Of a stretch of 64,000 nt of DNA, positions 1,823 through 17,435 are shown in pieces. The stretch comes from Escherichia phage vB_EcoM_ULIM9, in the sequence record OQ850288. One strand, written 5' to 3'. The position numbers and the translations under genes were made by a program. Position 1 is the stretch's first letter. Each line of letters begins with the position of its first letter. Under the pieces are notes generated by a model. The model did no database searches. It saw nothing but the letters and a program-made list of their open reading frames with translations, and was not told the origin of the DNA.

Positions 1823-2549
1823 CCCCTTTTAACCAGCACTTCAGGTTATTAGCATCATAATTCAGTTTCGGGTATGAGGTTACATGGAACTGCTCACCAT
1901 CATAATAGACAATATCTGCAATCCATAGTCCATTCTCTTTACAGAAGTCTTTATCTGCTTTAGAGGTAATTGGATTAACTTCTACAAAACCATCTACACC
2001 CAAATCCTTTAAGCTACCTACAATACCTTTGCAGATAACGCATGTCTCAGATACTACCACAAAAAGTTCTTGGCTTTCAAGTTCTACAATGTATTCGCCA
2101 AGCTGTACTTTAGGGAGGTTCGATTGCTTCATAACCTTTCCATCGGCTGCACGAACAATCGCATACCATTCTTTACCATCAACTACTGACATTCTGATAA
2201 TACACTCTTGACCAGTGCGCTTTTCAATGTCTGCAAGACGTTTTAAAGCTTCTTCATAGTCATCTGTGTACTTCAGGTCATTATTATGGCAAACAGCTTT
2301 CATAGCACCGTTATGGTCATGCTGTGACAGGTAAATCAAACCATCAAGAACATATTGCAAATCTGCCTGAGCATCCAGTGTCTCAATGGGGTCTTTCTCT
2401 TCAATTGCTTTTACAAGCTCTTTTGCTTCTTCAAGCATACACAGAGACTGGGATTTTAAAGACTCCCAATACTCATCACTGTAAGGTTGCTTTTGAGTGT
2501 TTCCACAACGAAGATTCCAGTTTTTTACTGCTTCTCTTGAGTTAAACAT
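1794..2549 (-). CDS. hypothetical protein with MazG-like (NTP pyrophosphohydrolase) N-terminal motif
   Basis: 251 aa; segment EEAKELVKAIEEKDPIETLDAQADLQYVLDGLIY resembles the acidic EExxE...D...L helix pair of MazG-type NTP-PPases; weak motif-level call. Confidence 0.3.
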   Translation of the reverse strand: MFNSREAVKNWNLRCGNTQKQPYSDEYWESLKSQSLCMLEEAKELVKAIEEKDPIETLDAQADLQYVLDGLIYLSQHDHNGAMKAVCHNNDLKYTDDYEEALKRLADIEKRTGQECIIRMSVVDGKEWYAIVRAADGKVMKQSNLPKVQLGEYIVELESQELFVVVSETCVICKGIVGSLKDLGVDGFVEVNPITSKADKDFCKENGLWIADIVYYDGEQFHVTSYPKLNYDANNLKCWLKGVGYNGFTEH

Positions 2550-2787
2550 TTGGACTCCTTAAAAATCTGTTAACCTTTAGCTCTCGTGTTTCAATATATT
2601 CCAGATGCTCACGTAACTCTTGACGTTTAAGCATTAGGTGTTGCATTTGAGATTCAACAGCTTCAACTTCTTTAATTATTGACTCTCTGGCATTTGCAAG
2701 AATGCGCTCAAGTTCTTCAATCTTGCTGTCAACCTTTGCTACATGACTCACAGCTTTACTTTTGTTAAACATTTTATTCTCTCTCAA
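2542..2787 (-). CDS. hypothetical coiled-coil protein (81 aa)
   Basis: ORF track; charged heptad-like sequence. Confidence 0.4.
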   Translation of the reverse strand: MRENKMFNKSKAVSHVAKVDSKIEELERILANARESIIKEVEAVESQMQHLMLKRQELREHLEYIETRELKVNRFLRSPNV

Positions 2788-2793
2788 TAGTTA

Positions 2794-3294
2794 TCAAGCA
2801 CAATTCGCTTTCATTACCTTATGGATTCTTTTTTCAGCATCTTCATAAGTTTCTTTAGTAATAAACTTAATTGCTGCAATATTGGCATTGTAGAAGAGTC
2901 TGAGCTTAGAGTCAATCCTTTTTGTCATTACATCGAATTTATGTTGGAGGTTTGCTTCACCATAAACTAGACCACCTTTCGTGTAGTAGGTTTGTATAAT
3001 GTAAAAGTCAAAAAATTCTTTTCCAAAGCTCTCAATATCCTTTTTAATATACTCAGAAGAAGTCTCATAAGTCATCCAATCACTTTCCTTAGTGACTATC
3101 TTCTTCCGAGTCTTCCCAGCAACTTTTCTTTTAGTAACACTGTTAAACTGTTTCTTACCCAAATAATACTGTCCAGTCTTTTTGCAGTACACTAGGTAGA
3201 CAAAACCAAAGTGCTTTGCTGGGTCAACTTCACCACATAGTGAAATCCAATGTCCATATTCAGGGCAATTGCCAAAACCTTTTATTTTTCTCAT
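2794..3294 (-). CDS. putative GIY-YIG family nuclease
   Basis: 166 aa; N-terminal FGFVYLVYCKKTGQYYLGKK fits the GIY...YIG pattern; lies beside an HNH endonuclease gene. Confidence 0.4.
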   Translation of the reverse strand: MRKIKGFGNCPEYGHWISLCGEVDPAKHFGFVYLVYCKKTGQYYLGKKQFNSVTKRKVAGKTRKKIVTKESDWMTYETSSEYIKKDIESFGKEFFDFYIIQTYYTKGGLVYGEANLQHKFDVMTKRIDSKLRLFYNANIAAIKFITKETYEDAEKRIHKVMKANCA

Positions 3295-3806
3295 TCATCA
3301 CCTTTATTAGCAAACTCTTTGTGTAAACGTTGACGTTCCCTATTTACAACCTCTGCTGCTTCAGCAATCGTGTCATAGTTGCCGAAGAAGTAAACCCTCT
3401 TCTTAAAAGTTATCTGTGTAGCCCACTTACCATACTGTTTATTGTAGTACACACCTTTAACACCTGATTTATTGTTCTTATTGAGCAATCTATTACATTG
3501 GTTCTCTGATAACGTACATGCTCTAAGATTTACCCAGCGATTATCTAATGTTACATGATTTTTATGGTCAACACACTCAGGGAGGTAACCATCCATATAC
3601 AGAACAGCTAGTGTATGTGCATAATAACCCTTACCAAACAAATAAATTCTGATGTAACCTTTTAAGTTTGTACCTGCAACAGAGCCAATTTTTGTGTGTC
3701 TAGCAGACTTCTTAATCCAAGTAAAGACCCCTGTTTCGGGGTCATAGTGCAGGTATTCTTTAAGAGTTTGTTGGGTTAACATTTGGTGTCCATCCATACT
3801 TGTCAA
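3291..3806 (-). CDS. HNH homing endonuclease with AP2-like DNA-binding domain
   Basis: YLHYDPETGVFTW N-terminus, HNH core ...CVDHKNHVTLDNRWVNLR..., AP2-like GVKGVYYNKQYGKWATQI; true start probably an internal Met (about 3782) because the 5' end overlaps the exonuclease gene. Confidence 0.7.
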   Translation of the reverse strand: MTSMDGHQMLTQQTLKEYLHYDPETGVFTWIKKSARHTKIGSVAGTNLKGYIRIYLFGKGYYAHTLAVLYMDGYLPECVDHKNHVTLDNRWVNLRACTLSENQCNRLLNKNNKSGVKGVYYNKQYGKWATQITFKKRVYFFGNYDTIAEAAEVVNRERQRLHKEFANKGDE

Positions 3807-4806
3807 AAGTGAAATCGTCTTTCTTGTTTCTTTCCTGATAAGCTAAGAAAAAGTGTTGCTGCATTAACTCTAAAGGTGTTCTGGTAATTGTTTGACCATC
3901 CCATGATACATAAGTGTATGACTCTTTCTTAGCATAAAGTTCATAGATAGCATCAAGACACTCTTTATAAGTATTTTTACCTTCAAGGGCTTTCATTACA
4001 GTAGCCTTACCAACGCCCTTTAAACCAAAATAATTATCAGCATTGTCACCAGCCACAGCTTGATAACAAAGGAATTTAAAACCTACACCAACTGTCTTCT
4101 TAGCTTTTGGTGTTGATTTTATTGGGCAATCCCAAATTTCACCTACGTTGTTGTCAGCAATGAAAATCAAAGGCGACTTTTCATAGGTCATATCAATGCA
4201 GTAAGTCCCTTCAGCTTGGCGAAGGTCTTTATCAATACTCATCAAGGCAGCCTTTTTACCCATCTTTTCAGCTTTAGCAATAACGATAGAATCGGCTTCA
4301 AATCCATCAAGAATTAGTTTGAACTCTGGTCTTGACAGAAGGTATTCACGACAAGCGACTAAGTGTGTTGGTGTGACGGCATCTTTACGGTTACCTTGAT
4401 ATTGGTGCTCAAGACCTTTAATGTCTTTATGCTTATGTACACCTTTCTCTGTTAAATAACCTACCCAAGTTCTCTCTTTACCAACCACCTTAAGCCATTC
4501 CTGAAGAACCTGTTGAGTAGCCATGATAGCTTCTTTTTCACTCTTAGCTTCTTTCCAAGTCTGTCTTTCCCATTCATCTTCATCAAATGTCAGGCCAAGT
4601 TCTTCCACAAGGATTCTCTGGTCTGCTAACCATCTTGCAGCATCTTTCGCATTATCAAATGGCTCAGACTCTTCTGCTGTGAGTTTATTGACATATTTAT
4701 ATTTTGCTTTCTCAACTACACAAGCCCCTTTATAGGCAATACTATCAGAGTCAATAAAGACATGTGTAACTGAATCGGGAAGCTTTGTTAATGTGTACTT
4801 CTCCAT
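3760..4806 (-). CDS. 5'-3' exonuclease / flap endonuclease (RNase H-like)
   Basis: 348 aa; acidic active-site clusters (VFIDSDSIAYKG, AGDNADNYFGLKGVGKAT helix-3-turn-helix motif) typical of phage FEN/RNase H. Confidence 0.7.
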   Translation of the reverse strand: MEKYTLTKLPDSVTHVFIDSDSIAYKGACVVEKAKYKYVNKLTAEESEPFDNAKDAARWLADQRILVEELGLTFDEDEWERQTWKEAKSEKEAIMATQQVLQEWLKVVGKERTWVGYLTEKGVHKHKDIKGLEHQYQGNRKDAVTPTHLVACREYLLSRPEFKLILDGFEADSIVIAKAEKMGKKAALMSIDKDLRQAEGTYCIDMTYEKSPLIFIADNNVGEIWDCPIKSTPKAKKTVGVGFKFLCYQAVAGDNADNYFGLKGVGKATVMKALEGKNTYKECLDAIYELYAKKESYTYVSWDGQTITRTPLELMQQHFFLAYQERNKKDDFTFDKYGWTPNVNPTNS

Positions 4807-4868
4807 TATGGCTCTCCATATGAAAAAGCCCCATACTAAGTACAGGGCTTTAAAGTAACTTTTAGAGA

Positions 4869-5726
4869 TTAATCTTCTGTATCGAAGTCTTCATCTTCTT
4901 CGTCATCTGGGTCTGGCAAGTCTTCATCATCGCCATCATCAGAATTATTCGAAGGTTTGTGGTCTGTTGCGTCTTCTTCAGTGATTTCACCGTTATCTTC
5001 AACACCATCAAGACCAAGCATAGCCAGTTCGTCTTCATCCAGTTCAGGTTCACCATTAGCACCGTTACCACCAGTGTAAGGTACAAGAGTATCAATGATA
5101 AACTGTTCCTGAATAGGTTTTGTCAGAACATTGTTCTCAAAAGTGTAGAAGTGAGTAGAAAGAATCACACTACCAAAAGAACCGTTACCAACTGCAATAT
5201 CTGGATGAATTACATCATAGTTCTTGTCATCTTCATGTTTATCAGATGCTTGAGCTTTGATTTTCTTCATTGGCTGCTTAACAGCTACACGCTTACCATT
5301 TACTTCTTCAATCAGCATTACAGGGAATGACTGTTTAGCTGTCCATACAGCACCATCCTTATAAGCTGCTGCACGACTTACTTTCAAGATGTAGTAAGTG
5401 TCTGCTTCAAATGGTGGTTTGCAGCCAAACTTCTCTTCGAAGTCATCTGCATCAACTGCTTCAGTAGTAACTTTATCCCACCCTTCTGGATTTTTCTTAG
5501 ACTTAGTAAACTCTTTAAAGAGCTTGTTACCGTCTTCTGCCAGAATTGATACGCTGTAGTTACAGTCTTTTCCTGGGAATTTCTTATCAATTGATTTACC
5601 TTTTCCCGGACGTGGTGAAGTGTTCAGGTAATAAAACCAGACATCTTTCAGCAGGTAACGCAGAGTTTGACGTTCAGTACCGTTGTACTTCTCTACCGGA
5701 GCTTTCATTTTAACAACTTTAGACAT
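4869..5726 (-). CDS. putative single-stranded DNA-binding protein with acidic C-terminal tail
   Basis: 285 aa; C-terminal 40 residues almost entirely D/E ending DEDFDTED, as in phage SSBs; sits in the replication module. Confidence 0.4.
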   Translation of the reverse strand: MSKVVKMKAPVEKYNGTERQTLRYLLKDVWFYYLNTSPRPGKGKSIDKKFPGKDCNYSVSILAEDGNKLFKEFTKSKKNPEGWDKVTTEAVDADDFEEKFGCKPPFEADTYYILKVSRAAAYKDGAVWTAKQSFPVMLIEEVNGKRVAVKQPMKKIKAQASDKHEDDKNYDVIHPDIAVGNGSFGSVILSTHFYTFENNVLTKPIQEQFIIDTLVPYTGGNGANGEPELDEDELAMLGLDGVEDNGEITEEDATDHKPSNNSDDGDDEDLPDPDDEEDEDFDTED

Positions 5727-5798
5727 TATTTAAACCTCTATCTCAATTTATGAAGAGTACCAATTCTAATTTGTTGATACTCTATTGTCAAACATTAA

Positions 5799-5948
5799 TT
5801 ACTGGAAGTTGTGCTTATCTTTAGAAGCTGCTTTACGTGCAGTTTTTCCAGTTCTTACACGTTTTTCTTCATAGTATTTTGCTGGTTTTCCAGCAGTGGC
5901 TTTTAAGGAATCCCCAAAAACTTTTTCAAATGCTTTAGAGTGTTTCAT
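5799..5948 (-). CDS. small basic protein (49 aa), below ORF-track size cutoff
   Basis: Hand translation MKHSKAFEKVFGDSLKATAGKPAKYYEEKRVRTGKTARKAASKDKHNFQ; ATG at 5946-5948 overlaps the stop of the upstream gene (ATGA). Confidence 0.35.
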   Translation of the reverse strand: MKHSKAFEKVFGDSLKATAGKPAKYYEEKRVRTGKTARKAASKDKHNFQ

Positions 5949-6238
5949 GATATTCTCCGATATACTTGATATTCAAACACATTTTCTTTCATTATAAACA
6001 GCCAACCAATATTATGCTGAGGCAGTGTAATGATGACTGTAATCATACTTTGATGGAACTGTTGTTCTATTTCAACTTCTCCATCGCATTTCATGTGGAG
6101 CATTCTATAGAACCTATCAATCTTTGTCAAACACTCTTCATGAAATTTATTTAAACTTTTTTCTTCAAATAAGGGTGTGAACCCCTCTCTTTTATAGCTA
6201 TCACTCAGTTTCGAACGGGCAGTCATCTGCATCCTCAC
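5945..6238 (-). CDS. hypothetical protein (97 aa)
   Basis: ORF track; start overlaps primase-helicase 3' end. Confidence 0.35.
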   Translation of the reverse strand: MRMQMTARSKLSDSYKREGFTPLFEEKSLNKFHEECLTKIDRFYRMLHMKCDGEVEIEQQFHQSMITVIITLPQHNIGWLFIMKENVFEYQVYRRIS

Positions 6239-8192
6239 TTAATACAGGTGGAATCGTTGAGCTTTGACGCTGCTCTTCAGTATAGACTTCACCAGTCTCA
6301 CGGTCAAACACTTCATCCTCATAATGTGGCAAAGAGTCATCGTAATGGTCTTCAGCTTCACCAATACCAAACTGTTGGCGAATATTTTCTGCTGCACCAT
6401 CAATGTCAACTCCACAACCAGAGGCTTTAATGAGACGTCCTGTATCTGGATTGTACCAAGTATGACCAGCAATACCTGTTGACTTACCGTGACGACGGCA
6501 TTTAGTTAACTTGATTTTTGTCAAGTTTTTCTTAACAGGGTCTGGGTCAACCTTGTTACGCATTAACAGAATGTTGTTCATAGAAATCTGGAAATACGCA
6601 CCAGAACCTTTAATATCCTCTTCAGAGATATCTCCACCTTCGGAGTTAGCCTTCTGACCACCTGCACTCTTACGAACGTGACAGACGTTCACCTGTGCAT
6701 ACTGGTAGCGTTTGCAACGACGCAATAGCTCAGACAAAACTTCTTCTTCATCCGTATCAGAACGTGACAGGGCTAACGTGATAGGGTCAAGAATGATAAT
6801 CTTACAGTCTAAACTGTTAACAAGATAGTCAACAAACTCTAGCAGGTTATCTTGGTCAATTGCCCCTTGATGGTCTACGATGTGGATACGACGACCTTTA
6901 GACAGTTCTGCGTGTGCTTCCTTCAATTCATCCCAATCACGTTCGTCATAAGGAATCTCAGAAATCTGCTTGCTCAGGTGGATTGCACAAAGCATCTCCA
7001 TCAACTCTTCATAGGTATCTTCTACAGGAATTACACCAATATTGTAATCGGTATCTTTCCAAGCAGTATAAATCATTTCACGAGTGTATGCAGATTTACC
7101 CACTGAAGATGGTGCTGCCAGAGTTGTAATCTCACCTAAACCGTAACCACCATAAGTCAGTCTGTTCAAATCCCCGAAAGATTCTGGGAAAGGAATCAAT
7201 GGAATCTGACCACGATTCTTCATTGCCTCAAAACCATCTGCGAAGTTCTTGATACCAGCAGGACAGTAACGAGGTGCATTGTAGATACGCTGCTTAAACC
7301 CCTCCAGAACTGTATCTTTCTCTTTATAGAACTTTGTCCACCACTCGTTAAGGTCTTTTACACCTTCTGGATACTGGAATAAACGAACCTTCTCAATAGG
7401 TAGGATACCAGCAGCCTCTTTAGTGGCTTTAGCACCTGCTTCATCGTTATCAAAGCACAAGTAAATCTCATCAAATGATGTAATGTACTGATAGTTATCC
7501 TTGATAGACTTGATGTTTGCACCTGATGGAACAGATACGTGACAGTAATTCTTACGACGAGACTTATCTTTAATCGCAAGAGAAGTCATATAGATTGCTG
7601 TCGCACATTCCATCTCACCTTCCCAGATGAATAGACGGTTACCACCTTCTGGAGCAATCCATGAACCGAACATTGCCAGTTCGCCTTTAATGTCTCCAAC
7701 ACCACCTGAGAAGTCTTTTAGCTTACCTCGTAGGTGTTCTTTTGGATGGTCTTCTGGATAGCGATGACGTACACGGTAGCCAACGTGCTCTAGCTTACCA
7801 TCTTCATTACGTTTGTAAGTTGGATAGAAATGCGCATCAATTTCACCGTCACTGTCAATGTCAACCTTGATACCCAATCGCTCAAGAACTTTTGCAGGAA
7901 TCTTCCTGTCTTTTAAGTCCATTGCTTCAAGGTTTTCTTTTACATCGTCTAAATCCATTCCACGGAAAGTACGGTTTTTATTGTCTGAACCAGTAGAATA
8001 AGTGCTCACGATTTGTCCTTTATCAAAATCCCACTCTGGGAAACCTTTGTTACAACTAAAGCAAGTCATTGAATAAGAATCATCGTCATGATGATAGATT
8101 GAACCAGCATCTGATGAACCACAACGTGGACATGCGCAATGACCAACAAACTGACCAGCCTCTTTCAATTTACGACCTTTAGACATTAGCAC
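6201..8192 (-). CDS. DNA primase/helicase (T7 gp4-like)
   Basis: 663 aa; N-terminal zinc ribbon (CPRCGSSD...CFSCNKG), TOPRIM-like LCFDNDEAGAKATKEA, helicase Walker A LAAPSSVGKSAYT and Walker B IIILDPIT. Confidence 0.8.
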   Translation of the reverse strand: MLMSKGRKLKEAGQFVGHCACPRCGSSDAGSIYHHDDDSYSMTCFSCNKGFPEWDFDKGQIVSTYSTGSDNKNRTFRGMDLDDVKENLEAMDLKDRKIPAKVLERLGIKVDIDSDGEIDAHFYPTYKRNEDGKLEHVGYRVRHRYPEDHPKEHLRGKLKDFSGGVGDIKGELAMFGSWIAPEGGNRLFIWEGEMECATAIYMTSLAIKDKSRRKNYCHVSVPSGANIKSIKDNYQYITSFDEIYLCFDNDEAGAKATKEAAGILPIEKVRLFQYPEGVKDLNEWWTKFYKEKDTVLEGFKQRIYNAPRYCPAGIKNFADGFEAMKNRGQIPLIPFPESFGDLNRLTYGGYGLGEITTLAAPSSVGKSAYTREMIYTAWKDTDYNIGVIPVEDTYEELMEMLCAIHLSKQISEIPYDERDWDELKEAHAELSKGRRIHIVDHQGAIDQDNLLEFVDYLVNSLDCKIIILDPITLALSRSDTDEEEVLSELLRRCKRYQYAQVNVCHVRKSAGGQKANSEGGDISEEDIKGSGAYFQISMNNILLMRNKVDPDPVKKNLTKIKLTKCRRHGKSTGIAGHTWYNPDTGRLIKASGCGVDIDGAAENIRQQFGIGEAEDHYDDSLPHYEDEVFDRETGEVYTEEQRQSSTIPPVLSEDADDCPFETE

Positions 8193-8379
8193 CTCTTCGT
8201 TGTAGTTCTGCCTTCAATCCGTTTTCAATCTTGTCCAGTTCATGAATTTCATCTGCAATCTCTTTCCTTCGTGATTCAACTCTCTTAAGACGTTCAATCA
8301 TTACCTCATTGGAAAGAGATGAGAGTTCCACTAAACGGTGGTCAATAACTTTAAAATTGTCTTTTACTCTCATCTTCAT
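8179..8379 (-). CDS. hypothetical protein (66 aa)
   Basis: ORF track. Confidence 0.35.
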   Translation of the reverse strand: MKMRVKDNFKVIDHRLVELSSLSNEVMIERLKRVESRRKEIADEIHELDKIENGLKAELQRRGANV

Positions 8380-8387
8380 TCTCTCTT

Positions 8388-9131
8388 TTAAACTTTAATG
8401 ATGGCTCTTAGCTTGTTCTCAAGGTCTGCAAGAGTACCATTATTATGAATAATGTCACGCTCATATTTTGTAGAAATCCCATTTTCTGAAACATGTGATG
8501 AAACTTTGTCCACATTGTCTCTTTTTACTTCAATAGTTTGGTGTGCAAATCTACTCAGCCATTCAGCTTCAGAGTCAAATCTTAAATCACTGATTAAGAC
8601 AAAACCATATTGATTTCTGAGTGAGCACATTTCATGGAATCTAACCATTCTTTTTTCAAGGTCTTTAGACCAGAACTTGTCGCCCATAACTTTACGGATA
8701 ACTTCAGTACCCCAAATCTGTTGAATTTGTCTTGATGAGAATTTATACTTTTTGCTAAACCCCAGACGTGTCAATAGAGTCGGTTTAGCAACCTTCTTAA
8801 GCTCCATGATTAATCGTCCGGTTAACTCTGACATAAGCTTGAAGTCCATATGGTAACGTTCATCTCTGAAGGTGAACTCCATAGCTTCCGTAACTTTAAA
8901 CATCAGTTCAGGATATGATAAGTCAAAAACCTGCGGAGCCTCTTTAGTTTCACCGTACAGGTCATTCCAAGTCAAGTCAAATATCTTTGATGCAGATAGT
9001 TTAAGGTTGTCTGCAAAGGCCATTACTTCAACATTGTAGCCATACTCATCCTCTAAGATGTTCTTCACAATAGAACATGAGGTGTCTTTTCCAGAACGTG
9101 CCTTTCCAGTAAATGCGATAATATTACTCAT
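8388..9131 (-). CDS. deoxynucleoside monophosphate kinase-like P-loop protein
   Basis: 247 aa; N-terminal P-loop IAFTGKARSGKDT as in phage dNMP kinases. Confidence 0.55.
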   Translation of the reverse strand: MSNIIAFTGKARSGKDTSCSIVKNILEDEYGYNVEVMAFADNLKLSASKIFDLTWNDLYGETKEAPQVFDLSYPELMFKVTEAMEFTFRDERYHMDFKLMSELTGRLIMELKKVAKPTLLTRLGFSKKYKFSSRQIQQIWGTEVIRKVMGDKFWSKDLEKRMVRFHEMCSLRNQYGFVLISDLRFDSEAEWLSRFAHQTIEVKRDNVDKVSSHVSENGISTKYERDIIHNNGTLADLENKLRAIIKV

Positions 9132-9192
9132 TTTATCTCCCTTAATTACTAAAAAGCCCCCAACTAAGGAGGCTTGTAAGATTTATAAAGAC

Positions 9193-9993
9193 TTAGTGCA
9201 GTTGCTCAGCATACTCTTTTTCAGCCATAGCTGAGATTTGCTTCACAAAATCATCACCGAAGTTAATGCGTAGTTTCTCTTCAATGATGGAAGCACCAAT
9301 GTTCACCAAAACATCATTGATTGCTTGCATACTGACGCCACCAGTCATCTCTTCAATGAACTCAATACTCACACCCATCATCTGTGAAAGTTGGATTAGT
9401 GCAACGATATTCATCATCGTAGAGATAGCTGGAATCATCAGTGCAACTTTCACCTGAAGCGGTTCTATATCAGCTACAGAGTCATTCTCAACAGCTTCTT
9501 CCAAAGACTCTTTAGTTTGCTGGATAATCTCCTTGATTCGTGGGTTTAGTTCTTCTACACCCCAATCAAGTTTTTCATATCGTGACAACTTCTCTTCCAT
9601 TCGCTTCTCAAGAGCAGCCATAACAGAACTGGTTGATGAAATTAACAGGTCAATTAGCTCATCATTACCTGCGAGTAGTAGCAAGTCTTTTTCTTCAGTG
9701 GTCATGGCAATATAGTCATTTTTCTGCATCTCATAAAAAATGAACTCTGCAAGAGCATCAACACCTACAACGATAGATGCTAAAGCAAGTGTTTTGTCGC
9801 AAAGCATCATGTTAACCTGTTCTGCAAAAGCACCGTTATCAGACTTGTCTTCAGGCAAGTTATAGCTTGAAGGCATAAACTGTTCTGTGTAGTTGTTGCC
9901 ACGAAGAATCATAGCCATGCTTTCTACGGCATTGATTAAGAATGCTTCATCAACACCTTTCTCTTCAAGCATCTTTTCTACATCGATATTCAT
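9193..9993 (-). CDS. hypothetical protein (266 aa)
   Basis: ORF track; no motif recognised. Confidence 0.5.
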   Translation of the reverse strand: MNIDVEKMLEEKGVDEAFLINAVESMAMILRGNNYTEQFMPSSYNLPEDKSDNGAFAEQVNMMLCDKTLALASIVVGVDALAEFIFYEMQKNDYIAMTTEEKDLLLLAGNDELIDLLISSTSSVMAALEKRMEEKLSRYEKLDWGVEELNPRIKEIIQQTKESLEEAVENDSVADIEPLQVKVALMIPAISTMMNIVALIQLSQMMGVSIEFIEEMTGGVSMQAINDVLVNIGASIIEEKLRINFGDDFVKQISAMAEKEYAEQLH

Positions 9994-9994
9994 A

Positions 9995-10417
9995 TTATTT
10001 CTCTCTCAGTTGGTTAAGTTTCTTTCTAGAACATTTTAAGTTTTCAGATGAAGAAAAGTCAAGTGTCTTTTCAGAACGTGGATAATAGTGCCTATCCCAA
10101 GAAGTTTCAACATCGTTAATCAGTGACGCTAGATTACACAGGTCTGTACCACTTTGCAACTTCTTTTTAAGAGAATCTAGTAAAGCAACTGTGTCTTTAG
10201 CTTTACGTCTCGCTGTAGCAACATCTTTCATATGCTCAAATACAGAGCATTTTAAGTCATCTTCATAGTTTTCAGACAACTCTATTTCATGTTGTATATC
10301 AACCATTCTCCTGTGATGGTGAGCATATTCCCGTTGAGCAGCAATGTCAAGTTCTTCCAACTTCTGCAAAGCTCTAACAAAGTCAGCTATGTCTGGGTGA
10401 ACAAACATTTTCTGCAT
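9995..10417 (-). CDS. hypothetical protein (140 aa)
   Basis: ORF track; first gene of the minus-strand block at a divergent promoter region. Confidence 0.5.
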   Translation of the reverse strand: MQKMFVHPDIADFVRALQKLEELDIAAQREYAHHHRRMVDIQHEIELSENYEDDLKCSVFEHMKDVATARRKAKDTVALLDSLKKKLQSGTDLCNLASLINDVETSWDRHYYPRSEKTLDFSSSENLKCSRKKLNQLREK

Positions 10418-10674
10418 GTAAGCCTCTTTTAAGTAACTATTAAGTTTTAATCTTTTATCTTAACGTATTCTATACGTTATACTTTAAAGCTTTTTAAAAG
10501 CTATTAAATAATCTTTTAAGAGTTTTAAAGTATCTGTATAGTTAAACTGTTAAGTAACCTTTTAAGTAAAAACCCACTTCGCAAAGATTAACACCTTGTC
10601 AAGTACATTGTCAACTTGCTTTTTATAATTTTTTGCAGTAATGTATGAGGTTAATGATTTTAGAGGGAGTAAAA

Positions 10675-13374
10675 ATGGAAAACGTAGATTTTAAGAACTT
10701 ACATTTAGTTGGTGATACAGAAACTGATGGTTTACTCCTTGAGTTCACTAAAGTTCACGTAATGGCTTTTGCAGACTATAAATCTGACGATGAAGAGCCA
10801 CCTGTATGGGTCTTCACAGATGAGCCTATCCTCGGTCACAAGTACACTAAGTACATTAAGGGTGGTTTACGTGAAGGTGTTGAGTTTGCGTTAAAGGCAA
10901 AACGACTTTGTATCCATAATGGTCTCGGTTATGACTGGTGGGTTTTCAATCACATTGCACCGGATTTATGGAACTTTGATAATCCAAAATGTAAGCCGTG
11001 GAGTAATTTCTTTCAGGACTCTCTTATCCAGTCTCGTGTTCAGTGGATGGATAGACCAACTCCAAAGGGTTATAAAGGTGCTCATGGTTTGGCTGCATGG
11101 GGTGCTCGTGTTGGTGTTCGTAAGCCAGAGATTGAGCATTGGGGTGTGTGGAATGCAGAAATCTTCACTCGTGTTGTAGAAGATATTCGTATTAACGCCA
11201 AAACTAAACGGGCACTTGATAATGAGTATCTCAAGCTTAAGAAGTGTGGCATAGACACTTATGAAACCTACATGCGAGCTAAAGAAACATCTTTCTGGAT
11301 GAGTCAACAAGCTATCAATGGCTGGAAAGCTGATAAAGAGCTTATGGAGTTCCATGTAAAGGAACTTGACAAGTTGACTAATGAGCTTGCTTCAGAGGTT
11401 GAACCACATCTACCACCAACTATTAAGACCAAAGGTAAAGTCACTGGAGAAGAGTTTGCAAAAGCTTGGAATGAGTATGTTGAAACATTTGGTCATGCAG
11501 ATGGACTGAAAAGAATTACCAAGTACCCTAAGACAAAGTATCGTCAGCAGGTACGTAATGGTGAGATGCAGACATATGAAATCAAGCCATTTGGTAAGCC
11601 AACTACAAAGATTTTTAACATTGAAAAGAGAAATTGCTATACACCAACCAACTCTGTAACTGGTGAAGAGTACAAGGAAGGCTTTGTAGCAATGAAGGAT
11701 GCTCGTGCAATTTGCAATGAGTTGAATGCAAAGATTGGTAAGAAATGCAAAGACTGGAAGCCAGTAAAAACAGTCAAAACTGTGAAGTACTATAACAGCC
11801 ACGTTGTTAACCACTTTGAGCTTGAGTCAAGTCGCTACACAGGTTTGATTGATGCACCATATACACCAATTGAGTTTGAAGTTTCTCGTATGACTCAGGT
11901 AGCAGTTGTTAAAGACTACTTGAAATCAGTTGGTTGGATTCCAGATGACTGGAACTACAAGAAAGACTCAGACGGTCGCCCTATCAAAGTTTGTCGTTTC
12001 AAAGACAATAAAAAGATGATTACAAAACATCCTAAGTGGCAGGAAATGGTTGAGCGGTGCGGTTTGAGCTATGTTGAGCATGAAGGTGTACAGTACATTG
12101 AGCATAACTGGTCTGTTAAGAAGTACACAGACTTACTTGAACCTTGTCTGATTAGGACTTCACCAAAACTTACTGAATCATCTTATGATACGATTGAAGG
12201 TGAGCTTGGACAGAAGATTGCTAAGTACTATACTTTGATGCACCGACGCAGAACTATTGAGAACTCAAAGGATGATGAAAAAGGTTGGTTGAACCAGATT
12301 CGTCCTGATGGTCGCCTTAGTGCTGGTGCAATGGTGTTTGGTACTTCAACTGGACGTATGACACAATATGGTATTGTAAACGTACCGTCTGGTGCTGCTG
12401 TCTATGGAGCACCTATGAGGGCAGTGTGGATTTGTGAAGAGGGGACTAACATTGTTTCTGTTGACCAGAACTCAGCCCAGCTAGTTCTTCTTTGTAACTT
12501 TATGGGTGATGAAGACTTCACTAAAGCGGTAACTGAGGGTAAAGAGTCAGTAGAATTTACCAAGCAAGAAGATGGGAGATATTATTGCAAACATCTTGAT
12601 AAGTACCTTAATCCAGAAACTGATAAGTATCTTCGTTATGATGCTGAGAATGACCTCTATGAAGTCTACACAGGTACTGATGCACATACACTGAATAGTA
12701 TTTACTTTGGTCTGAACAAGGAAGAAGACATTGTTCGTTGTAGGGAGACACAGGATGAGGAACTTCTCCACGAGATTACAAAAGGTCGTAAGAAGAGCAA
12801 AAATGGCATCTACGCCCTGTTATTTGGAGCCGGAGACGAGAAGTTTGCAAAAACTATCAAGGCATCATCTACGGAAGAAGGTGCATTGACTAAACAAACT
12901 TACTATATGCGTCTGCCAAAGATTAAGAAGTTGCTTGATAGCTTAGAAGCCGATTTTAAGGCGTCTAAAAAGGCTCTGGAAGAGGTTTTTGGGAAGAATT
13001 CTTCAATTGCTAAAGGTGGTTATATCAGGGTCGCTGGAGCATGGATATGGTGCAAATCTCCACATAAACTACTGAACTACCTCCTGATGAGTTCGGAAGC
13101 ACAGATTCAGAATGAGGCCATCAACCTAGCAGCAAGAAAAGCCTGTGAAGATGGCCTGACAAAACTGAATGCTCGAAAACCAGCTATCGGAGCAAGGTTA
13201 CTTCTGGCATATCACGATGAAAATAGTTGGGAATGCCCAGAGGGTATGACACATGATATGAAAGCAATTGCTGACTGGATGTATGGACAAGCTTCAAAAA
13301 ACTTAGGTTTGAGGAAAGAAACACTTGTAACTGGTACAGCAAAGGTTGGTAAGAGCTGGTTGGAGGTACATTGA
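10675..13374 (+). CDS. DNA polymerase, family A (Pol I-like) with 3'-5' exonuclease domain
   Basis: ORF track frame 10645-13374; start moved to ATG 10675 (MENVDFKNL), which follows an AGGGAG Shine-Dalgarno; DTETDG exonuclease motif near N-terminus; about 900 aa. Confidence 0.85.
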   Translation: MENVDFKNLHLVGDTETDGLLLEFTKVHVMAFADYKSDDEEPPVWVFTDEPILGHKYTKYIKGGLREGVEFALKAKRLCIHNGLGYDWWVFNHIAPDLWNFDNPKCKPWSNFFQDSLIQSRVQWMDRPTPKGYKGAHGLAAWGARVGVRKPEIEHWGVWNAEIFTRVVEDIRINAKTKRALDNEYLKLKKCGIDTYETYMRAKETSFWMSQQAINGWKADKELMEFHVKELDKLTNELASEVEPHLPPTIKTKGKVTGEEFAKAWNEYVETFGHADGLKRITKYPKTKYRQQVRNGEMQTYEIKPFGKPTTKIFNIEKRNCYTPTNSVTGEEYKEGFVAMKDARAICNELNAKIGKKCKDWKPVKTVKTVKYYNSHVVNHFELESSRYTGLIDAPYTPIEFEVSRMTQVAVVKDYLKSVGWIPDDWNYKKDSDGRPIKVCRFKDNKKMITKHPKWQEMVERCGLSYVEHEGVQYIEHNWSVKKYTDLLEPCLIRTSPKLTESSYDTIEGELGQKIAKYYTLMHRRRTIENSKDDEKGWLNQIRPDGRLSAGAMVFGTSTGRMTQYGIVNVPSGAAVYGAPMRAVWICEEGTNIVSVDQNSAQLVLLCNFMGDEDFTKAVTEGKESVEFTKQEDGRYYCKHLDKYLNPETDKYLRYDAENDLYEVYTGTDAHTLNSIYFGLNKEEDIVRCRETQDEELLHEITKGRKKSKNGIYALLFGAGDEKFAKTIKASSTEEGALTKQTYYMRLPKIKKLLDSLEADFKASKKALEEVFGKNSSIAKGGYIRVAGAWIWCKSPHKLLNYLLMSSEAQIQNEAINLAARKACEDGLTKLNARKPAIGARLLLAYHDENSWECPEGMTHDMKAIADWMYGQASKNLGLRKETLVTGTAKVGKSWLEVH

Positions 13375-13377
13375 TTA

Positions 13378-13911
13378 ATGGATTTAATTTTACAAAAACG
13401 TTTAAAGGAGCTGCTGCACTATGACCCCGAAACAGGGGTCTTTACTTGGCTTCGTAGAGAAGGTAAATCAAGAGCTGTTAGTGTTTTTAACAGTAATTAT
13501 GCAGGAAAGGTGGCAGGTAATATCCAGACTGATTCAAGTGGTCATAAACAGATTAGTATCTATTTTGACAAGAAAGCACATAAAGCACACAGGCTCGCAT
13601 GGCTTTACGTGTATGGCAAGATGCCAAAAGGTATCATTGACCATATCAACGGAGACTCGCTTGACAACAGGATTGTAAACTTAAGGGAAGCAGATGATTT
13701 TCAAAGTGCTTGGAATAAAGGTAAACCAGTCACCAATAAATCTGGGTACAAGGGTGTAAGTCTTAAGAAGAAGTCTGGTAAGTGGGTCGCACAGATAAGT
13801 TATAAAGGTAAGAAGATGTTTTTAGGTCACCATGACACACCAGAAGAAGCCCATAAAGCTTACTGTGAAGCTGCTATTAAACTCCACGGAGAGTTTGCAA
13901 AACTAAGTTGA
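13378..13911 (+). CDS. HNH homing endonuclease with AP2-like domain (free-standing, directly after DNA polymerase)
   Basis: 177 aa; LHYDPETGVFTW, HNH core GIIDHINGDSLDNRIVNLR, AP2-like YKGVSLKKKSGKWVAQISYKGKK; paralog of 3291-3806. Confidence 0.8.
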   Translation: MDLILQKRLKELLHYDPETGVFTWLRREGKSRAVSVFNSNYAGKVAGNIQTDSSGHKQISIYFDKKAHKAHRLAWLYVYGKMPKGIIDHINGDSLDNRIVNLREADDFQSAWNKGKPVTNKSGYKGVSLKKKSGKWVAQISYKGKKMFLGHHDTPEEAHKAYCEAAIKLHGEFAKLS

Positions 13912-13962
13912 CAAGGTTCTCATGGAAGAGTACCTTATACTATATCTTATATAGGAGGGCTT

Positions 13963-14172
13963 ATGAGCCACCGTGGAAGAACCCATGCAGCGATGATGAA
14001 AGATGCTTCAAAGGAAACTATCAAGAACCGTAAACAGAAGTTGTTTGAGAGGATGAACAGGTTAATTGACAATTCATCTCTTTCTGGTTCTGAGAAGGTT
14101 TTCTTGAAAGGTAATCTGAAAAGCATTGCACAAGAACTTATTGACATTGAGTATTGGAGACATCAAAAATGA
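13963..14172 (+). CDS. hypothetical protein (69 aa)
   Basis: ORF track; first of four short overlapping plus-strand ORFs. Confidence 0.4.
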   Translation: MSHRGRTHAAMMKDASKETIKNRKQKLFERMNRLIDNSSLSGSEKVFLKGNLKSIAQELIDIEYWRHQK

Positions 14173-14387
14173 CACTTGCAGACGTTATTCAGCAACTTCA
14201 TGATAACTGCTATACTCCAGAGTTGATTCAGGAGATGCTTATTGTAGTGATGCCTAGTAAGTTCGTAAAAGGTTTTAATAGTGAATCTTTAAAGTCTGCG
14301 CATATCCTTATTGTTGACGGTAAGATTGCAAGAGACCGCACAGGAGTCCTTAAGGGCGAACGTATTGATATTGACTTAGTCTTTTAA
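14154..14387 (+). CDS. hypothetical protein (77 aa)
   Basis: ORF track. Confidence 0.4.
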   Translation: METSKMTLADVIQQLHDNCYTPELIQEMLIVVMPSKFVKGFNSESLKSAHILIVDGKIARDRTGVLKGERIDIDLVF

Positions 14388-14396
14388 GGGAAAACT

Positions 14397-14603
14397 ATGG
14401 AAGTCCTAGTAAACTATATCTATTGTTATGATGTTGTTCACTCCACTACAACGGTAGCTCAACGTAACCCAATCGTCCCACGAGAAGGTGAGTTTGTTCG
14501 CATTGATGGTTGGACTTACACTGTTGAAAGCATCATTCATAAGTTTGATGTTGCTGGCGATGTTCAAGTTATCGACGTAGAGATTGGTGGTAAGAGAAAA
14601 TGA
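14397..14603 (+). CDS. hypothetical protein (68 aa)
   Basis: ORF track; GGAA-type RBS upstream. Confidence 0.4.
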   Translation: MEVLVNYIYCYDVVHSTTTVAQRNPIVPREGEFVRIDGWTYTVESIIHKFDVAGDVQVIDVEIGGKRK

Positions 14604-14791
14604 ACAAAGAAGACAAGCATAAAAATGCTGTACGAACTCCTGATGGGAAGATTCAATCATTCACCCTGACAGTTGGTGGAAAGCCATTCCGTTGCCACTG
14701 CGGAGCAAACTGCTTTCATAAACCAGATAAAAATGACTTAGAGCTTTACGCATGTAATGCTTGCAATACTTGGTATCATTCAGAGGAATAA
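14600..14791 (+). CDS. small zinc-ribbon protein (63 aa)
   Basis: CHCGANC...CNACNTW four-Cys arrangement. Confidence 0.4.
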   Translation: MNKEDKHKNAVRTPDGKIQSFTLTVGGKPFRCHCGANCFHKPDKNDLELYACNACNTWYHSEE

Positions 14792-14792
14792 A

Positions 14793-15896
14793 ATGACAAC
14801 ACTGTACAAACAAAATAAAGATGGTTCCTTCAACGTCTGGTCATGTGTTGCTGTAGGTGATAAAGTTATTACAACCTATGGTAAAGAAAATGGCAAGATG
14901 ATGTTTGAAGAGTATACAGCAGAACCGAAAAACATCGGTAAAAAGAATGAGCGTAACGCTGAACAGCAAGCTCTCTTTGAAGTTGCTGCTAAGTATAAAA
15001 AGCAAGTTGACCGCAAAGGTTATGCTTACACAAAAGAATCTGCACAGAATACTGAGAAGGTAGGTGTACAGCTTGCTCATGATGCTGCAAAGGTTAGTCA
15101 TGCAAAGTATCTGAAGTTCCCTGCTGATACTCAACCAAAACTTGATGGTGTTCGTTGTAGAATTTCAAGACACTTAAGTATTGGCAGTGTATTTACAGCA
15201 TATTCTCGTGAGAACACTATTTATAAAATTCCTACTGAGCTAATACCTGACATTATGGCAATGTTAAGGCTCCATAAAGACGTTGATGAATTTGATGGTG
15301 AAATCTATGCTCATGGGTTGGACTTAGAAGATATTGTCTCCATGATTAAAAATGAAGACAATCCTGACCGACACCTACTCAAGTTTTACTGGTATGATAT
15401 CTGTGACAGTACTAAGACGTGGCCTGAGCGTAGAGATATTATTGAGACTTCACCATTGAATGACTTTAGAGACGGCTGTAAAGTTGTTCCTGTTAAGTCT
15501 CGTCGTGTAAATTCTTGGGAAGAGTTTGATGAAGCTCATGATAAGTGGGTTGAAGCTAAGTTTGAAGGTGCAATGTACCGTTCAATCTCTGAAGACTCCT
15601 TCTATGAGTGTTGTCACCGTTCATACTTCTTGATTAAACACAAGAAGATGCACACTGAAGAGTTTAAAGTGACTGGTGTCAAGACCGATAAACGTGGTCA
15701 TGGCAAGTTCGTTGTAGAGACGCTTCCTAACGTCTTTGTAGATGTTTCATGGAAAACTACCCATGAGAAGAAGCAGTATCTTGCTGAGCATCCTGAAGAG
15801 TTTATCGGGAAACCTTTAACGGTACAGTTTCAGAAGATGACTCGTAAGGGGTCTTTACAGTTCCCTGTTGGTCTCGTTATTCGAGACTACGAATAA
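14793..15896 (+). CDS. ATP-dependent DNA ligase
   Basis: Start moved from 14757 to ATG 14793 (MTTLYKQ) preceded by GAGG; adenylation motif KLDGVRC, plus FDGEIY, EGAMYR and LIKHKK motifs in ligase order. Confidence 0.8.
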   Translation: MTTLYKQNKDGSFNVWSCVAVGDKVITTYGKENGKMMFEEYTAEPKNIGKKNERNAEQQALFEVAAKYKKQVDRKGYAYTKESAQNTEKVGVQLAHDAAKVSHAKYLKFPADTQPKLDGVRCRISRHLSIGSVFTAYSRENTIYKIPTELIPDIMAMLRLHKDVDEFDGEIYAHGLDLEDIVSMIKNEDNPDRHLLKFYWYDICDSTKTWPERRDIIETSPLNDFRDGCKVVPVKSRRVNSWEEFDEAHDKWVEAKFEGAMYRSISEDSFYECCHRSYFLIKHKKMHTEEFKVTGVKTDKRGHGKFVVETLPNVFVDVSWKTTHEKKQYLAEHPEEFIGKPLTVQFQKMTRKGSLQFPVGLVIRDYE

Positions 15897-16569: not shown

Positions 16570-16782
16570 ATGGCTCTTAAAAAGTTACATCCCAGAAGCG
16601 GTTATGGTAAGATAATTGACGATACAGACGGCTTTACAGTCTTTACAGTTATCTGCCAAGATGATTCACAGATTGAAAAGGCTCTTGACGATTATCTTAA
16701 CGATGAACGTGAAAAGGTTCGGGCTACAAACATAGATTCATTGATTGACACTTCACGCAAACGGAAGAAGAAAGATGAATGA
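16570..16782 (+). CDS. hypothetical protein (70 aa)
   Basis: ORF track. Confidence 0.4.
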   Translation: MALKKLHPRSGYGKIIDDTDGFTVFTVICQDDSQIEKALDDYLNDEREKVRATNIDSLIDTSRKRKKKDE

Positions 16783-17074
16783 GGTTTTTGACCCTTATGC
16801 CCCACAAGATGATTGGGAGGCTGATAGAGAGGCTGAAATGGAGAGTTATATTTGTCCAATGGATGTAGACGAAATGAGAGACTTCGTTTCACATCGTTTT
16901 AAGAGAGAGATTAAATCCAGAGGTCTTTCTCAAGAACAAGTTGCTAAAATTTGTGGTATCTCTCAGGCTCGTGTATCCAACATAATCCACCTCACTGGGA
17001 ATGTTTCCCTTGAGTATATGTTGGAAGTATGTGAAAAATTTGGTGTTAGTTTTAATTTAAGGTTGGCAGATTAA
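16775..17074 (+). CDS. putative helix-turn-helix DNA-binding regulator
   Basis: ORF track frame 16745-17074; start moved to internal ATG 16775 (MNEVFDPY); LSQEQVAKICGISQARVSNI resembles an XRE/Cro-type HTH. Confidence 0.4.
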   Translation: MNEVFDPYAPQDDWEADREAEMESYICPMDVDEMRDFVSHRFKREIKSRGLSQEQVAKICGISQARVSNIIHLTGNVSLEYMLEVCEKFGVSFNLRLAD

Positions 17075-17075
17075 T

Positions 17076-17435
17076 ATGAAACGTGAAAACATTATCCACT
17101 CTGAAAACTTCGCATTAGGCTTTTATGGCGTACCCACTCACCTTGAAAAGTATTATGGTGTGAAGATTCTCTCCAATCTCATTATGGCTTACAAAGATGG
17201 TAAGATTAAGCATACCGAGAAGAAACGTGTCATGGGTTATATGGCTGTAGGTTCAGCAATCTCGAACATTAAGCTGGAAACAACTAGCAGTCAGGTTGTG
17301 AAAGACCACTTCATCAAAGAGCTTTACCAGAATCTTGATGGTGTAGATGTTCAGGCTGTTTGGCTGGATGTTGATGGTCATAACTACACAAGTTTCGTTT
17401 TCAAAAACGATGACATTAAGTGTTTGTTCCCATAA
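17076..17435 (+). CDS. hypothetical protein (119 aa)
   Basis: ORF track. Confidence 0.45.
   Translation: MKRENIIHSENFALGFYGVPTHLEKYYGVKILSNLIMAYKDGKIKHTEKKRVMGYMAVGSAISNIKLETTSSQVVKDHFIKELYQNLDGVDVQAVWLDVDGHNYTSFVFKNDDIKCLFP

Follow-up and report, generated by a model that had tools for sequence, protein, structure and literature searches.

The window analysed here, a 64,000-nucleotide (nt) stretch of the genome of Escherichia phage vB_EcoM_ULIM9 (sequence record OQ850288), carries two related genes for HNH-AP2 homing endonucleases, one at the end of the 5'-3' exonuclease gene (the exonuclease site, or site A) and the other directly after the gene for the family A DNA polymerase (the polymerase site, or site B). 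Both genes contain, close to their 5' ends, the same short inverted repeat, and its conservation across otherwise diverged relatives gives good support to the view that its stem is kept by selection at the nucleotide level, that is, at synonymous sites. In our judgement these are probably two homing endonuclease genes whose selected stem acts in the messenger RNA (mRNA) as an attenuator, a weak terminator or a barrier to decay.

Segments 2500-5000 and 12500-15000 of the window matched 256-257 GenBank phage records, mostly at 90-97% identity, and nearly all of these were Escherichia, Salmonella, Shigella or Citrobacter phages of the genus Felixounavirus. By these matches the window, which has a G+C content of 39%, is a Felix O1-like myovirus genome of that genus. 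For comparison, the genes of the window were mapped onto each of 34 loci, consisting of 33 related IMG/VR loci around the primase-helicase gene and Felix O1 itself (L001). The set includes distant relatives whose polymerase is only about 50-60% identical.

The original prediction had reported an identical 21-nt segment in the two HNH genes. This 21-mer, CTGCACTATGACCCCGAAACA, was indeed present exactly twice in the window, at 3732-3752 on the minus strand and 13414-13434 on the plus strand, where 100 shuffles gave an expectation of 0, but its length had been understated. The identity extends over 36 nt, CTGCACTATGACCCCGAAACAGGGGTCTTTACTTGG, and takes in all 12 codons of LHYDPETGVFTW. Outside this stretch, the two genes had no nucleotide similarity except for a 28/34 patch in the AP2 part. 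The core of the stretch is a perfect inverted repeat, GACCCC-GAAACA-GGGGTC, giving a 6-base-pair stem with five G-C pairs and a 6-nt loop, and it lies 39-51 nt into the endonuclease reading frame in all lineages. When folded as RNA, the 36-mer had a free energy of -12.6 kcal/mol (z -2.97), and the stem-loop formed in both mRNA contexts. A larger RNA structure around the hairpin was rejected, as the 121-nt folds were not significantly stable (z -1.8 and -0.6), and so was a known RNA family, since a search of 2500-14500 against Rfam gave no match at an expectation value (E) of 1 or below, whether to an intron or to any other family.

Comparison of the endonuclease genes revealed that the stem codons GAC CCC ... 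GGG GTC were identical in nine lineages drawn from both sites, lineages that are less than 85%, and mostly 33-58%, identical in amino acid sequence, and the stem was invariant across the 15 variants examined. The loop codons varied (GAA ACA, GAA ATA, GAT ACA, TTA ACA and GAC AAA), and the codons flanking the stem varied synonymously, with five Leu codons and TAT/TAC in use, and also TTT/TTC/TTA/TTG and ACT/ACG/ACA. Third-base agreement was 108/108 in the stem, compared with 48% of pairwise comparisons at other conserved four-fold codons of these genes. Synonymous divergence within a lineage reached 1.3-1.5, indicating that the synonymous sites of the HNH genes are otherwise saturated. The retained codons were also the rarest available, with CCC making up 3% of Pro, GGG 7% of Gly and GTC 10% of Val codons in the long open reading frames (ORFs) of the window, and nine of the ten CCC codons across the nine HNH genes were those of the hairpin. 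Paralogy does not by itself account for the shared stretch, which contains a hairpin or palindrome maintained by synonymous-site selection.

HNH endonucleases with the N-terminal peptide ..L(H/D)YDPETGVFTW are common among phages of many kinds, and the identity might be imagined to follow from this conserved peptide together with codon bias or a rare-codon "ramp", a constraint on protein or translation speed that involves no structure. The same peptide, YDPETGV, was however encoded by more than 80 codon combinations in 117 unrelated viral sequences. The Felix combination was found 0 times among these, and the full stem in 1 of the 117, a contig of 60% G+C, and in none from low-GC phages. Under the codon usage of the window the joint probability of the four stem codons is about 8e-5 per gene, and other rare codons (CCG, GGC and GTG), which a ramp would permit, were never used. 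We therefore consider this explanation scarcely credible. Chance or codon bias as the source of the identical stretch was ruled out by the shuffles, the codon survey and the codon usage taken together.

Two further candidates were rejected. An overlapping gene does not account for the constraint, as the exonuclease stop lies upstream of the hairpin and the alternative-frame ORF is missing from lineages with TAC GAC. In the window, the motif TATGACCCC creates an out-of-frame ATG that opens an 85-amino-acid ORF at 13421-13678 on the plus strand within the polymerase-site HNH gene, with an equivalent ATG at 3745 on the minus strand. Lineages with TACGACCCC do not have this ATG, and the ORF is for that reason probably spurious. 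A general phage regulatory motif was ruled out as well, because the motif is confined to the two HNH genes in 64 kilobases (kb) and is missing from a fourth HNH copy of Felix O1 (L001, 452-943). Searches of the 64 kb for ACCCC-N3-10-GGGGT, and for the 18-mer with up to three mismatches, found these two genes alone. More distant relatives likewise have HNH genes that lack the stem.

The same stem, with a loop of its own, was found in an HNH gene of Klebsiella phage KpV52 (genus Jedunavirus), whose protein is 38-48% identical to those of the Felix-type lineages, and again in contig L057 (45% G+C; 29-39% amino acid identity). The KpV52 gene (L277, vB_KpnM_KpV52, NC_041900.1, 36618-37133) has a hypothetical gene on one side and an exonuclease gene on the other, and is optional, being present in 4 of 72 related Klebsiella phages. 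Its motif, CAT TAT GAC CCC GTC ACA GGG GTC TTT ACT TGG, is identical to the Felix type at 31 of 33 nt.

The identification of two related HNH-AP2 genes in the original prediction was borne out by domain and family searches. Matches to Pfam HNH_3 were above the cut-off for both proteins (1.5e-11 at the exonuclease site and 9.1e-15 at the polymerase site), and both proteins belong to PHROG_99, "HNH endonuclease" (2.5e-68 and 5e-72). The AP2 match was above the cut-off for the polymerase-site protein (1.4e-12), whose AP2 part resembles solved plant AP2/ERF domains (ERF/WRI1 structures), and below it for the exonuclease-site protein (2.3e-4), in which the region of the weak match aligns with the polymerase-site copy. 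The two proteins were 41% identical over about 172 residues (E 4e-39), and the D-H of the HNH motif and three Asn columns were invariant across the nine lineages. A tblastn search of the 64 kb revealed no further HNH-AP2 or GIY-YIG paralogue. The polymerase-site ORF encodes 177 amino acids. At the exonuclease site, the ORF encodes 171 amino acids if started at TTG 3806 and 163 from ATG 3782, and the ATG is the most plausible start, as the paralogue begins at the aligned position and a weak GGA precedes this ATG by six nt.

The prediction had also placed the genes correctly, with their neighbours intact and no intron. The polymerase stop occupies 13372-13374, and the HNH ATG at 13378 is 3 nt past the end of the polymerase ORF. 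The exonuclease stop, at 3760-3762, falls inside the 5' end of the other HNH gene, for an overlap of 23-47 nt, and that HNH gene in turn overlaps the following GIY-YIG gene by 4 nt. Both HNH ORFs are in frames separate from those of their neighbours, and the exonuclease, polymerase and GIY-YIG ORFs are whole in the window.

Among the 34 loci, the exonuclease site held an HNH gene in 14, one of them a frameshifted pseudogene, and was empty in 20. The polymerase site was occupied in 18 and empty in 12, the four most distant loci being arranged differently. All four combinations of occupancy at the two sites were seen. The exonuclease site held at least three lineages and the polymerase site at least five, all of the same family and 33-60% identical, and the polymerase site of Felix O1 itself holds a different lineage from that in the window. 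In GenBank, both lineages of the window are in the minority, the exonuclease-site lineage being found in 23 of about 256 Felix-like records and the polymerase-site lineage in 58 of about 257. The ratio of nonsynonymous to synonymous substitution rates (dN/dS) of the HNH genes was 0.04-0.32, a sign of purifying selection which indicates that they encode working proteins.

Relatives without the insertions provided exact empty alleles at both sites, and these defined the insertion points. In empty exonuclease-site alleles the exonuclease and GIY-YIG genes overlap directly, and the exonuclease ends in ..KYNWEPCMNED before its stop; in occupied alleles, it ends in ..KYGWTPNVNPTNS. The differing ends indicate that insertion swaps the last 13 or so exonuclease codons for the element's own version. 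At the polymerase site, the empty allele reads from the polymerase stop through TTAGTA into TTGACAAGG, and in every occupied allele, including that of the window with its TGA, the HNH stop codon overlaps the TTGACA of the intergenic sequence on the TTGACAAGG side. These population signatures support the proposal, made in the original prediction, that both are free-standing homing endonuclease genes inserted beside replication genes.

The pseudogene, in L020 (IMGVR_UViG_2974574300, a Salmonella phage Si3-like locus), retains an ORF of 105 amino acids; its reading frame is broken because the C-run of the hairpin has lost one nt (GACCCC to GACCC). An HNH-AP2 gene was also observed directly upstream of the polymerase gene, and not behind it, in L027 and L028, whose polymerase is about 61% identical (about 14975-15450 after reorientation), and it has no hairpin (LKYRKSTGEFIW).

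Divergence of the adjoining genes was concentrated at the two sites. The 3' portion of the exonuclease gene, about 600 nt (3763-4400), exists as two haplotypes up to 29% apart, and the last 1000 nt or so of the polymerase gene (12375-13374) are mosaic, between an intron-like insertion site of relatives (codon 724/725, about 12817) and the HNH gene. Divergence in these flanks was 15-39% per 100 nt, peaked beside the insertion sites and, over the next 0.6-1 kb, dropped to the background level of about 3%. The flank haplotypes were largely linked to the endonuclease state, with exceptions in L010, L012, L018 and L032. The pattern supports both insertion sites as marks of recombination hot spots. 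Such tracts would arise if a break in an endonuclease-free allele were repaired from an occupied allele, with flanking markers copied along with the gene.

The polymerase gene of six relatives (L003, L007, L009, L012, L015 and L020) is interrupted by an insertion of about 800 nt at the position corresponding to the intron-like site; the window has the uninterrupted allele. In L003 the insertion spans 16613-17416 after reorientation (about 4574-5377 in the original orientation). It encodes a 160-amino-acid HNH protein of the Endonuclease_7 family (Pfam 1.1e-19) and has a sub-threshold match to the group I intron model RF00028, which scores 24.8 bits (E 9e-4) where the cut-off is 50. Downstream of this site, the interrupted and uninterrupted types of polymerase share only about 82% protein identity.

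A constant end was a feature of the polymerase site only. The last 75 nt of the HNH genes at that site, compared in the window, L001, L002, L011, L013, L021, L023 and L024, were 92-100% identical among all lineages, while the 75 nt just upstream were only 37-59% identical, with a sharp boundary between the two. A constant end beside such diverged sequence implies that HNH cores have repeatedly been exchanged by recombination, the 3' end staying with the locus, and shows that the lineages recombine often. The hairpin island, in contrast, is common to both sites. The intergenic sequence that follows and begins with TTGACA is the right-hand insertion boundary in every allele and is unique in the window. 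The sequence may act as a promoter for the next genes, although the promoter scan did not report it and a -10 element is weak or uncertain.

Recombination on this scale raises the question of whether the shared nucleotides have any function at all, or are a patch homogenised by gene conversion or recombination among HNH copies, within a phage and between co-infecting phages. The constant 3' end with its diverged surroundings and the mosaic flanks are what such exchange would leave, and beyond the stem lineages A1, A2 and B1 agree at 33 of 33 nt. A converted tract should nevertheless be continuous. Here the centre of the island, the loop, differs between lineages while the two arms never do, and the codons directly beside the stem vary synonymously. 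Two copies in one genome can differ, as with CTA and CTG in L006 and L018, and the stem persists in other phage genera, where the flanks are not shared. Selection has retained the rarest codons, precisely the ones that make the arms complementary, and an island of 18 nt is too short for efficient homologous exchange. With a variable loop between fixed arms, copies that differ within one genome and a stem in unrelated genera, gene conversion alone is an improbable source of the identity.

The role of the stem is most likely that of an RNA hairpin which attenuates or insulates expression of the nuclease. One HNH gene sits in the last exonuclease codons, and the other between the polymerase stop and the conserved sequence that precedes the next genes. 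In each case the stem-loop would act in the mRNA, 39-51 nt into the HNH frame and 17-49 nt past the stop of an essential upstream gene, as an attenuator or weak terminator, or by blocking RNA decay. Endonuclease expression would in this way be kept low and uncoupled from that of the exonuclease or polymerase, and at the polymerase site the downstream genes could be re-supplied by the promoter-like sequence at the 3' end of the insertion. The hairpin heads the list of terminator-like sequences for the first 17 kb of the window.

The closest known systems are mobE (of T4 and Aeh1) and segF, a GIY-YIG gene, in T-even phages. In T4, mobE and segF have weak terminators in the 5' ends of the genes, about 30% of transcripts stopping within mobE, and the next essential gene is served by a promoter that immediately follows mobE (PMC2988022). 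As in those systems, the window has small nuclease ORFs wedged between or overlapping essential genes of nucleic acid metabolism, optional among relatives and accompanied by co-conversion or divergence of the flanks, with a GC stem-loop in the 5' end of the endonuclease coding region; the polymerase site has the same layout as mobE, with a promoter-like sequence directly after the gene. The window genes differ in encoding HNH_3 proteins with a C-terminal AP2 domain, in residing in a phage of the Ounavirinae and in a shorter U-tract. The conservation of the stem across diverged lineages and phage genera is, for its part, undescribed for mobE and segF.

Several points weigh against an RNA attenuator. 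Only a short U-tract follows the stem, and it changes from lineage to lineage, reading UUUACUU in the window, UUAACAU, UUGACUU or UUCUACA in other lineages and GUAACAC in L057; lineages B3 and B4 have only two U, and L057 has none. The terminators listed for Felix O1 have 5-8 U and are far stronger (PMC3185647). No promoter-like site separates the exonuclease-site HNH gene from the GIY-YIG gene, so that strong termination there would starve the downstream genes. The hairpin matched no Rfam family, and there was no covariation, all six stem pairs being invariant; that test is uninformative, as there is no variation among the pairs and the D-P..G-V protein constraint forbids compensatory changes. 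The KpV52 and L057 genes were found by searching with the motif itself and consequently say nothing about its frequency. Finally, the G-U variants that an RNA stem allows (GAT, CCT and GTT) were never seen, and their lack would fit a sequence-specific palindromic DNA site equally well.

Such a site, with the stem as a palindrome in double-stranded DNA bound by a protein, either the AP2 domain of the endonuclease itself, serving as autorepressor or roadblock, or some other phage or host factor, would also explain why the 12 stem bases are invariant and the 6-nt spacer varies, the usual pattern of two half-sites. The AP2 domain of a cyanobacterial HNH-AP2 protein, in work from 2004 by Magnani and colleagues, reportedly binds poly(dG)/poly(dC) runs. 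The element is however located 39-51 nt inside the coding region and not over a promoter, with no promoter-like site adjoining, and one and the same operator would have to serve lineages whose DNA-binding domains differ greatly (33-58% identity). Nor do the inferred target regions in the empty alleles have a G4/C4 run or any similarity to the motif. Autorepression by I-TevI is a documented precedent (PMC2988022), and there too a cis element tied to the endonuclease gene could limit its expression, but the operator of I-TevI lies across a promoter and is similar to the homing site, whereas the window element is palindromic, lies inside the ORF and resembles neither inferred target. On balance we consider a DNA site unlikely.

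Returning to the RNA hairpin, a broader version of the proposal is possible, though we offer it tentatively. The stem-loop may be a portable cis-regulatory module of the HNH-AP2 subfamily that travels between unrelated enterobacterial phages (Felixounavirus and Klebsiella Jedunavirus), written into the D-P..G-V turn by obligatory use of the rarest codons. It might insulate the essential upstream mRNA and so lower the cost of insertion, or it might be a palindromic operator bound by the endonuclease itself. In combination with the 3' module common to the polymerase-site genes, it would make the genes cassettes with constant ends and exchangeable cores. All of these elements belong to a single joint claim, and it is for the whole that our confidence is low.

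The gene adjoining the exonuclease-site HNH gene encodes a protein whose residues 22-139 match the Pfam model SegE_GIY-YIG (3.6e-27). The original prediction had counted it among the mobile nucleases, and on this point it was not upheld, since homologues at one position in every relative were what it had itself named as speaking against mobility. The gene was found at the same position in 34 of 34 loci, at 52-98% identity and including the relatives with a 50-60% identical polymerase; its dN/dS was 0.03-0.06, and its identity tracked that of the exonuclease and polymerase. Its fixed position and a conservation like that of the replication genes indicate that it is a resident, nuclease-like core gene of this phage group and not a mobile insertion. 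The protein resembles SegE-type homing endonucleases of T4 in matching the SegE GIY-YIG catalytic domain model, but the match fills nearly the whole protein, with no separate DNA-binding domain apparent, and the fixation of the gene in all 34 relatives is likewise unlike the T4 Seg type. No second Pfam domain and no sequence relatives in the PDB were found for it. In many GenBank Felixounavirus records, and in PHROG_447, the gene is labelled "NAD synthetase", which is probably a propagated misannotation, SegE-type GIY-YIG being the sole recognisable domain. The features discussed are collected in Table 1.

Table 1 Features of the vB_EcoM_ULIM9 window at the exonuclease and polymerase sites
Feature	Position	Strand	Basis or remark
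GIY-YIG domain gene, 166 amino acids	2794-3294	-	Pfam SegE_GIY-YIG
HNH-AP2 homing endonuclease gene, exonuclease site (A)	3291-3806	-	ORF list, Pfam, PHROG_99
36-nt stretch, copy A	3717-3752	-	hairpin core 3726-3743, begins 17 nt past exonuclease stop
5'-3' exonuclease gene	3760-4806	-	Pfam/PHROG matches
Family A DNA polymerase gene, intact	10645-13374	+	ORF list, Pfam
HNH-AP2 homing endonuclease gene, polymerase site (B)	13378-13911	+	ORF list, Pfam, PHROG_99
36-nt stretch, copy B	13414-13449	+	hairpin core 13423-13440, 49 nt past polymerase stop, 45 nt past HNH ATG
Constant 3' module of polymerase-site HNH genes (ending ..EEAHKAYCEAAIKLHGEFAKLS and stop)	13837-13911	+	alignment of lineages
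Conserved intergenic sequence, begins TTGACA, promoter-like	13908-13941	+	alignment of empty and occupied alleles

Further polymorphism was observed downstream. Just beyond the polymerase-site HNH gene, the window at 14385-14397, between the ORFs 14154-14387 and 14397-14603, has no counterpart of a 240-450-nt segment found in most relatives, which makes this another presence/absence polymorphism. In Felix O1 the segment (L001, 24479-24736) encodes an 85-amino-acid protein with a lipoprotein-type signal (..FLAGC..). Divergence of 30-38% per 100 nt, in genomes otherwise about 97% identical, was also seen at 14605-14705 and at 15105-15500, the latter within the DNA ligase gene (14757-15896). The ligase of GenBank relatives is annotated in two or three pieces. 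These divergent patches are probably further mosaic hot spots associated with endonucleases or introns.

That both HNH genes are homing endonuclease genes is already known and ordinary, and they are annotated in dozens of Felix O1-like genomes; the window genes are the same genes. Six HNH endonuclease homologues were reported for Felix O1 in 2010, in a study whose terminator prediction was confined to intergenic regions (PMC3185647), and a comparative paper on Felixounavirus merely lists homing endonucleases as annotations (PMC8300805). GenBank labels copies of both genes that are 95-99% identical "HNH (homing) endonuclease". The empty alleles, the turnover of lineages, the constant 3' module, and the intragenic hairpin with its synonymous-site conservation were not described in the literature searched, and we regard the hairpin conservation, the lineage turnover and the 3' module as modest additions to the known picture.

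The HNH genes are useful as markers, as they explain the mosaic 3' ends of the exonuclease and polymerase genes, and probably the mosaic ligase gene, in phages otherwise 95-99% identical. For Felix O1-type phages used in therapy and diagnostics, this mosaicism bears on taxonomy and engineering. The hairpin itself is a clean natural case of strong synonymous-site selection inside a selfish gene, seen in lineages in which such sites are otherwise saturated. Should it indeed attenuate or insulate expression, the observation made for mobE and segF of T4 would extend to another phage subfamily, and it would suggest that such elements are inherited parts of the mobile gene, not local adaptations.

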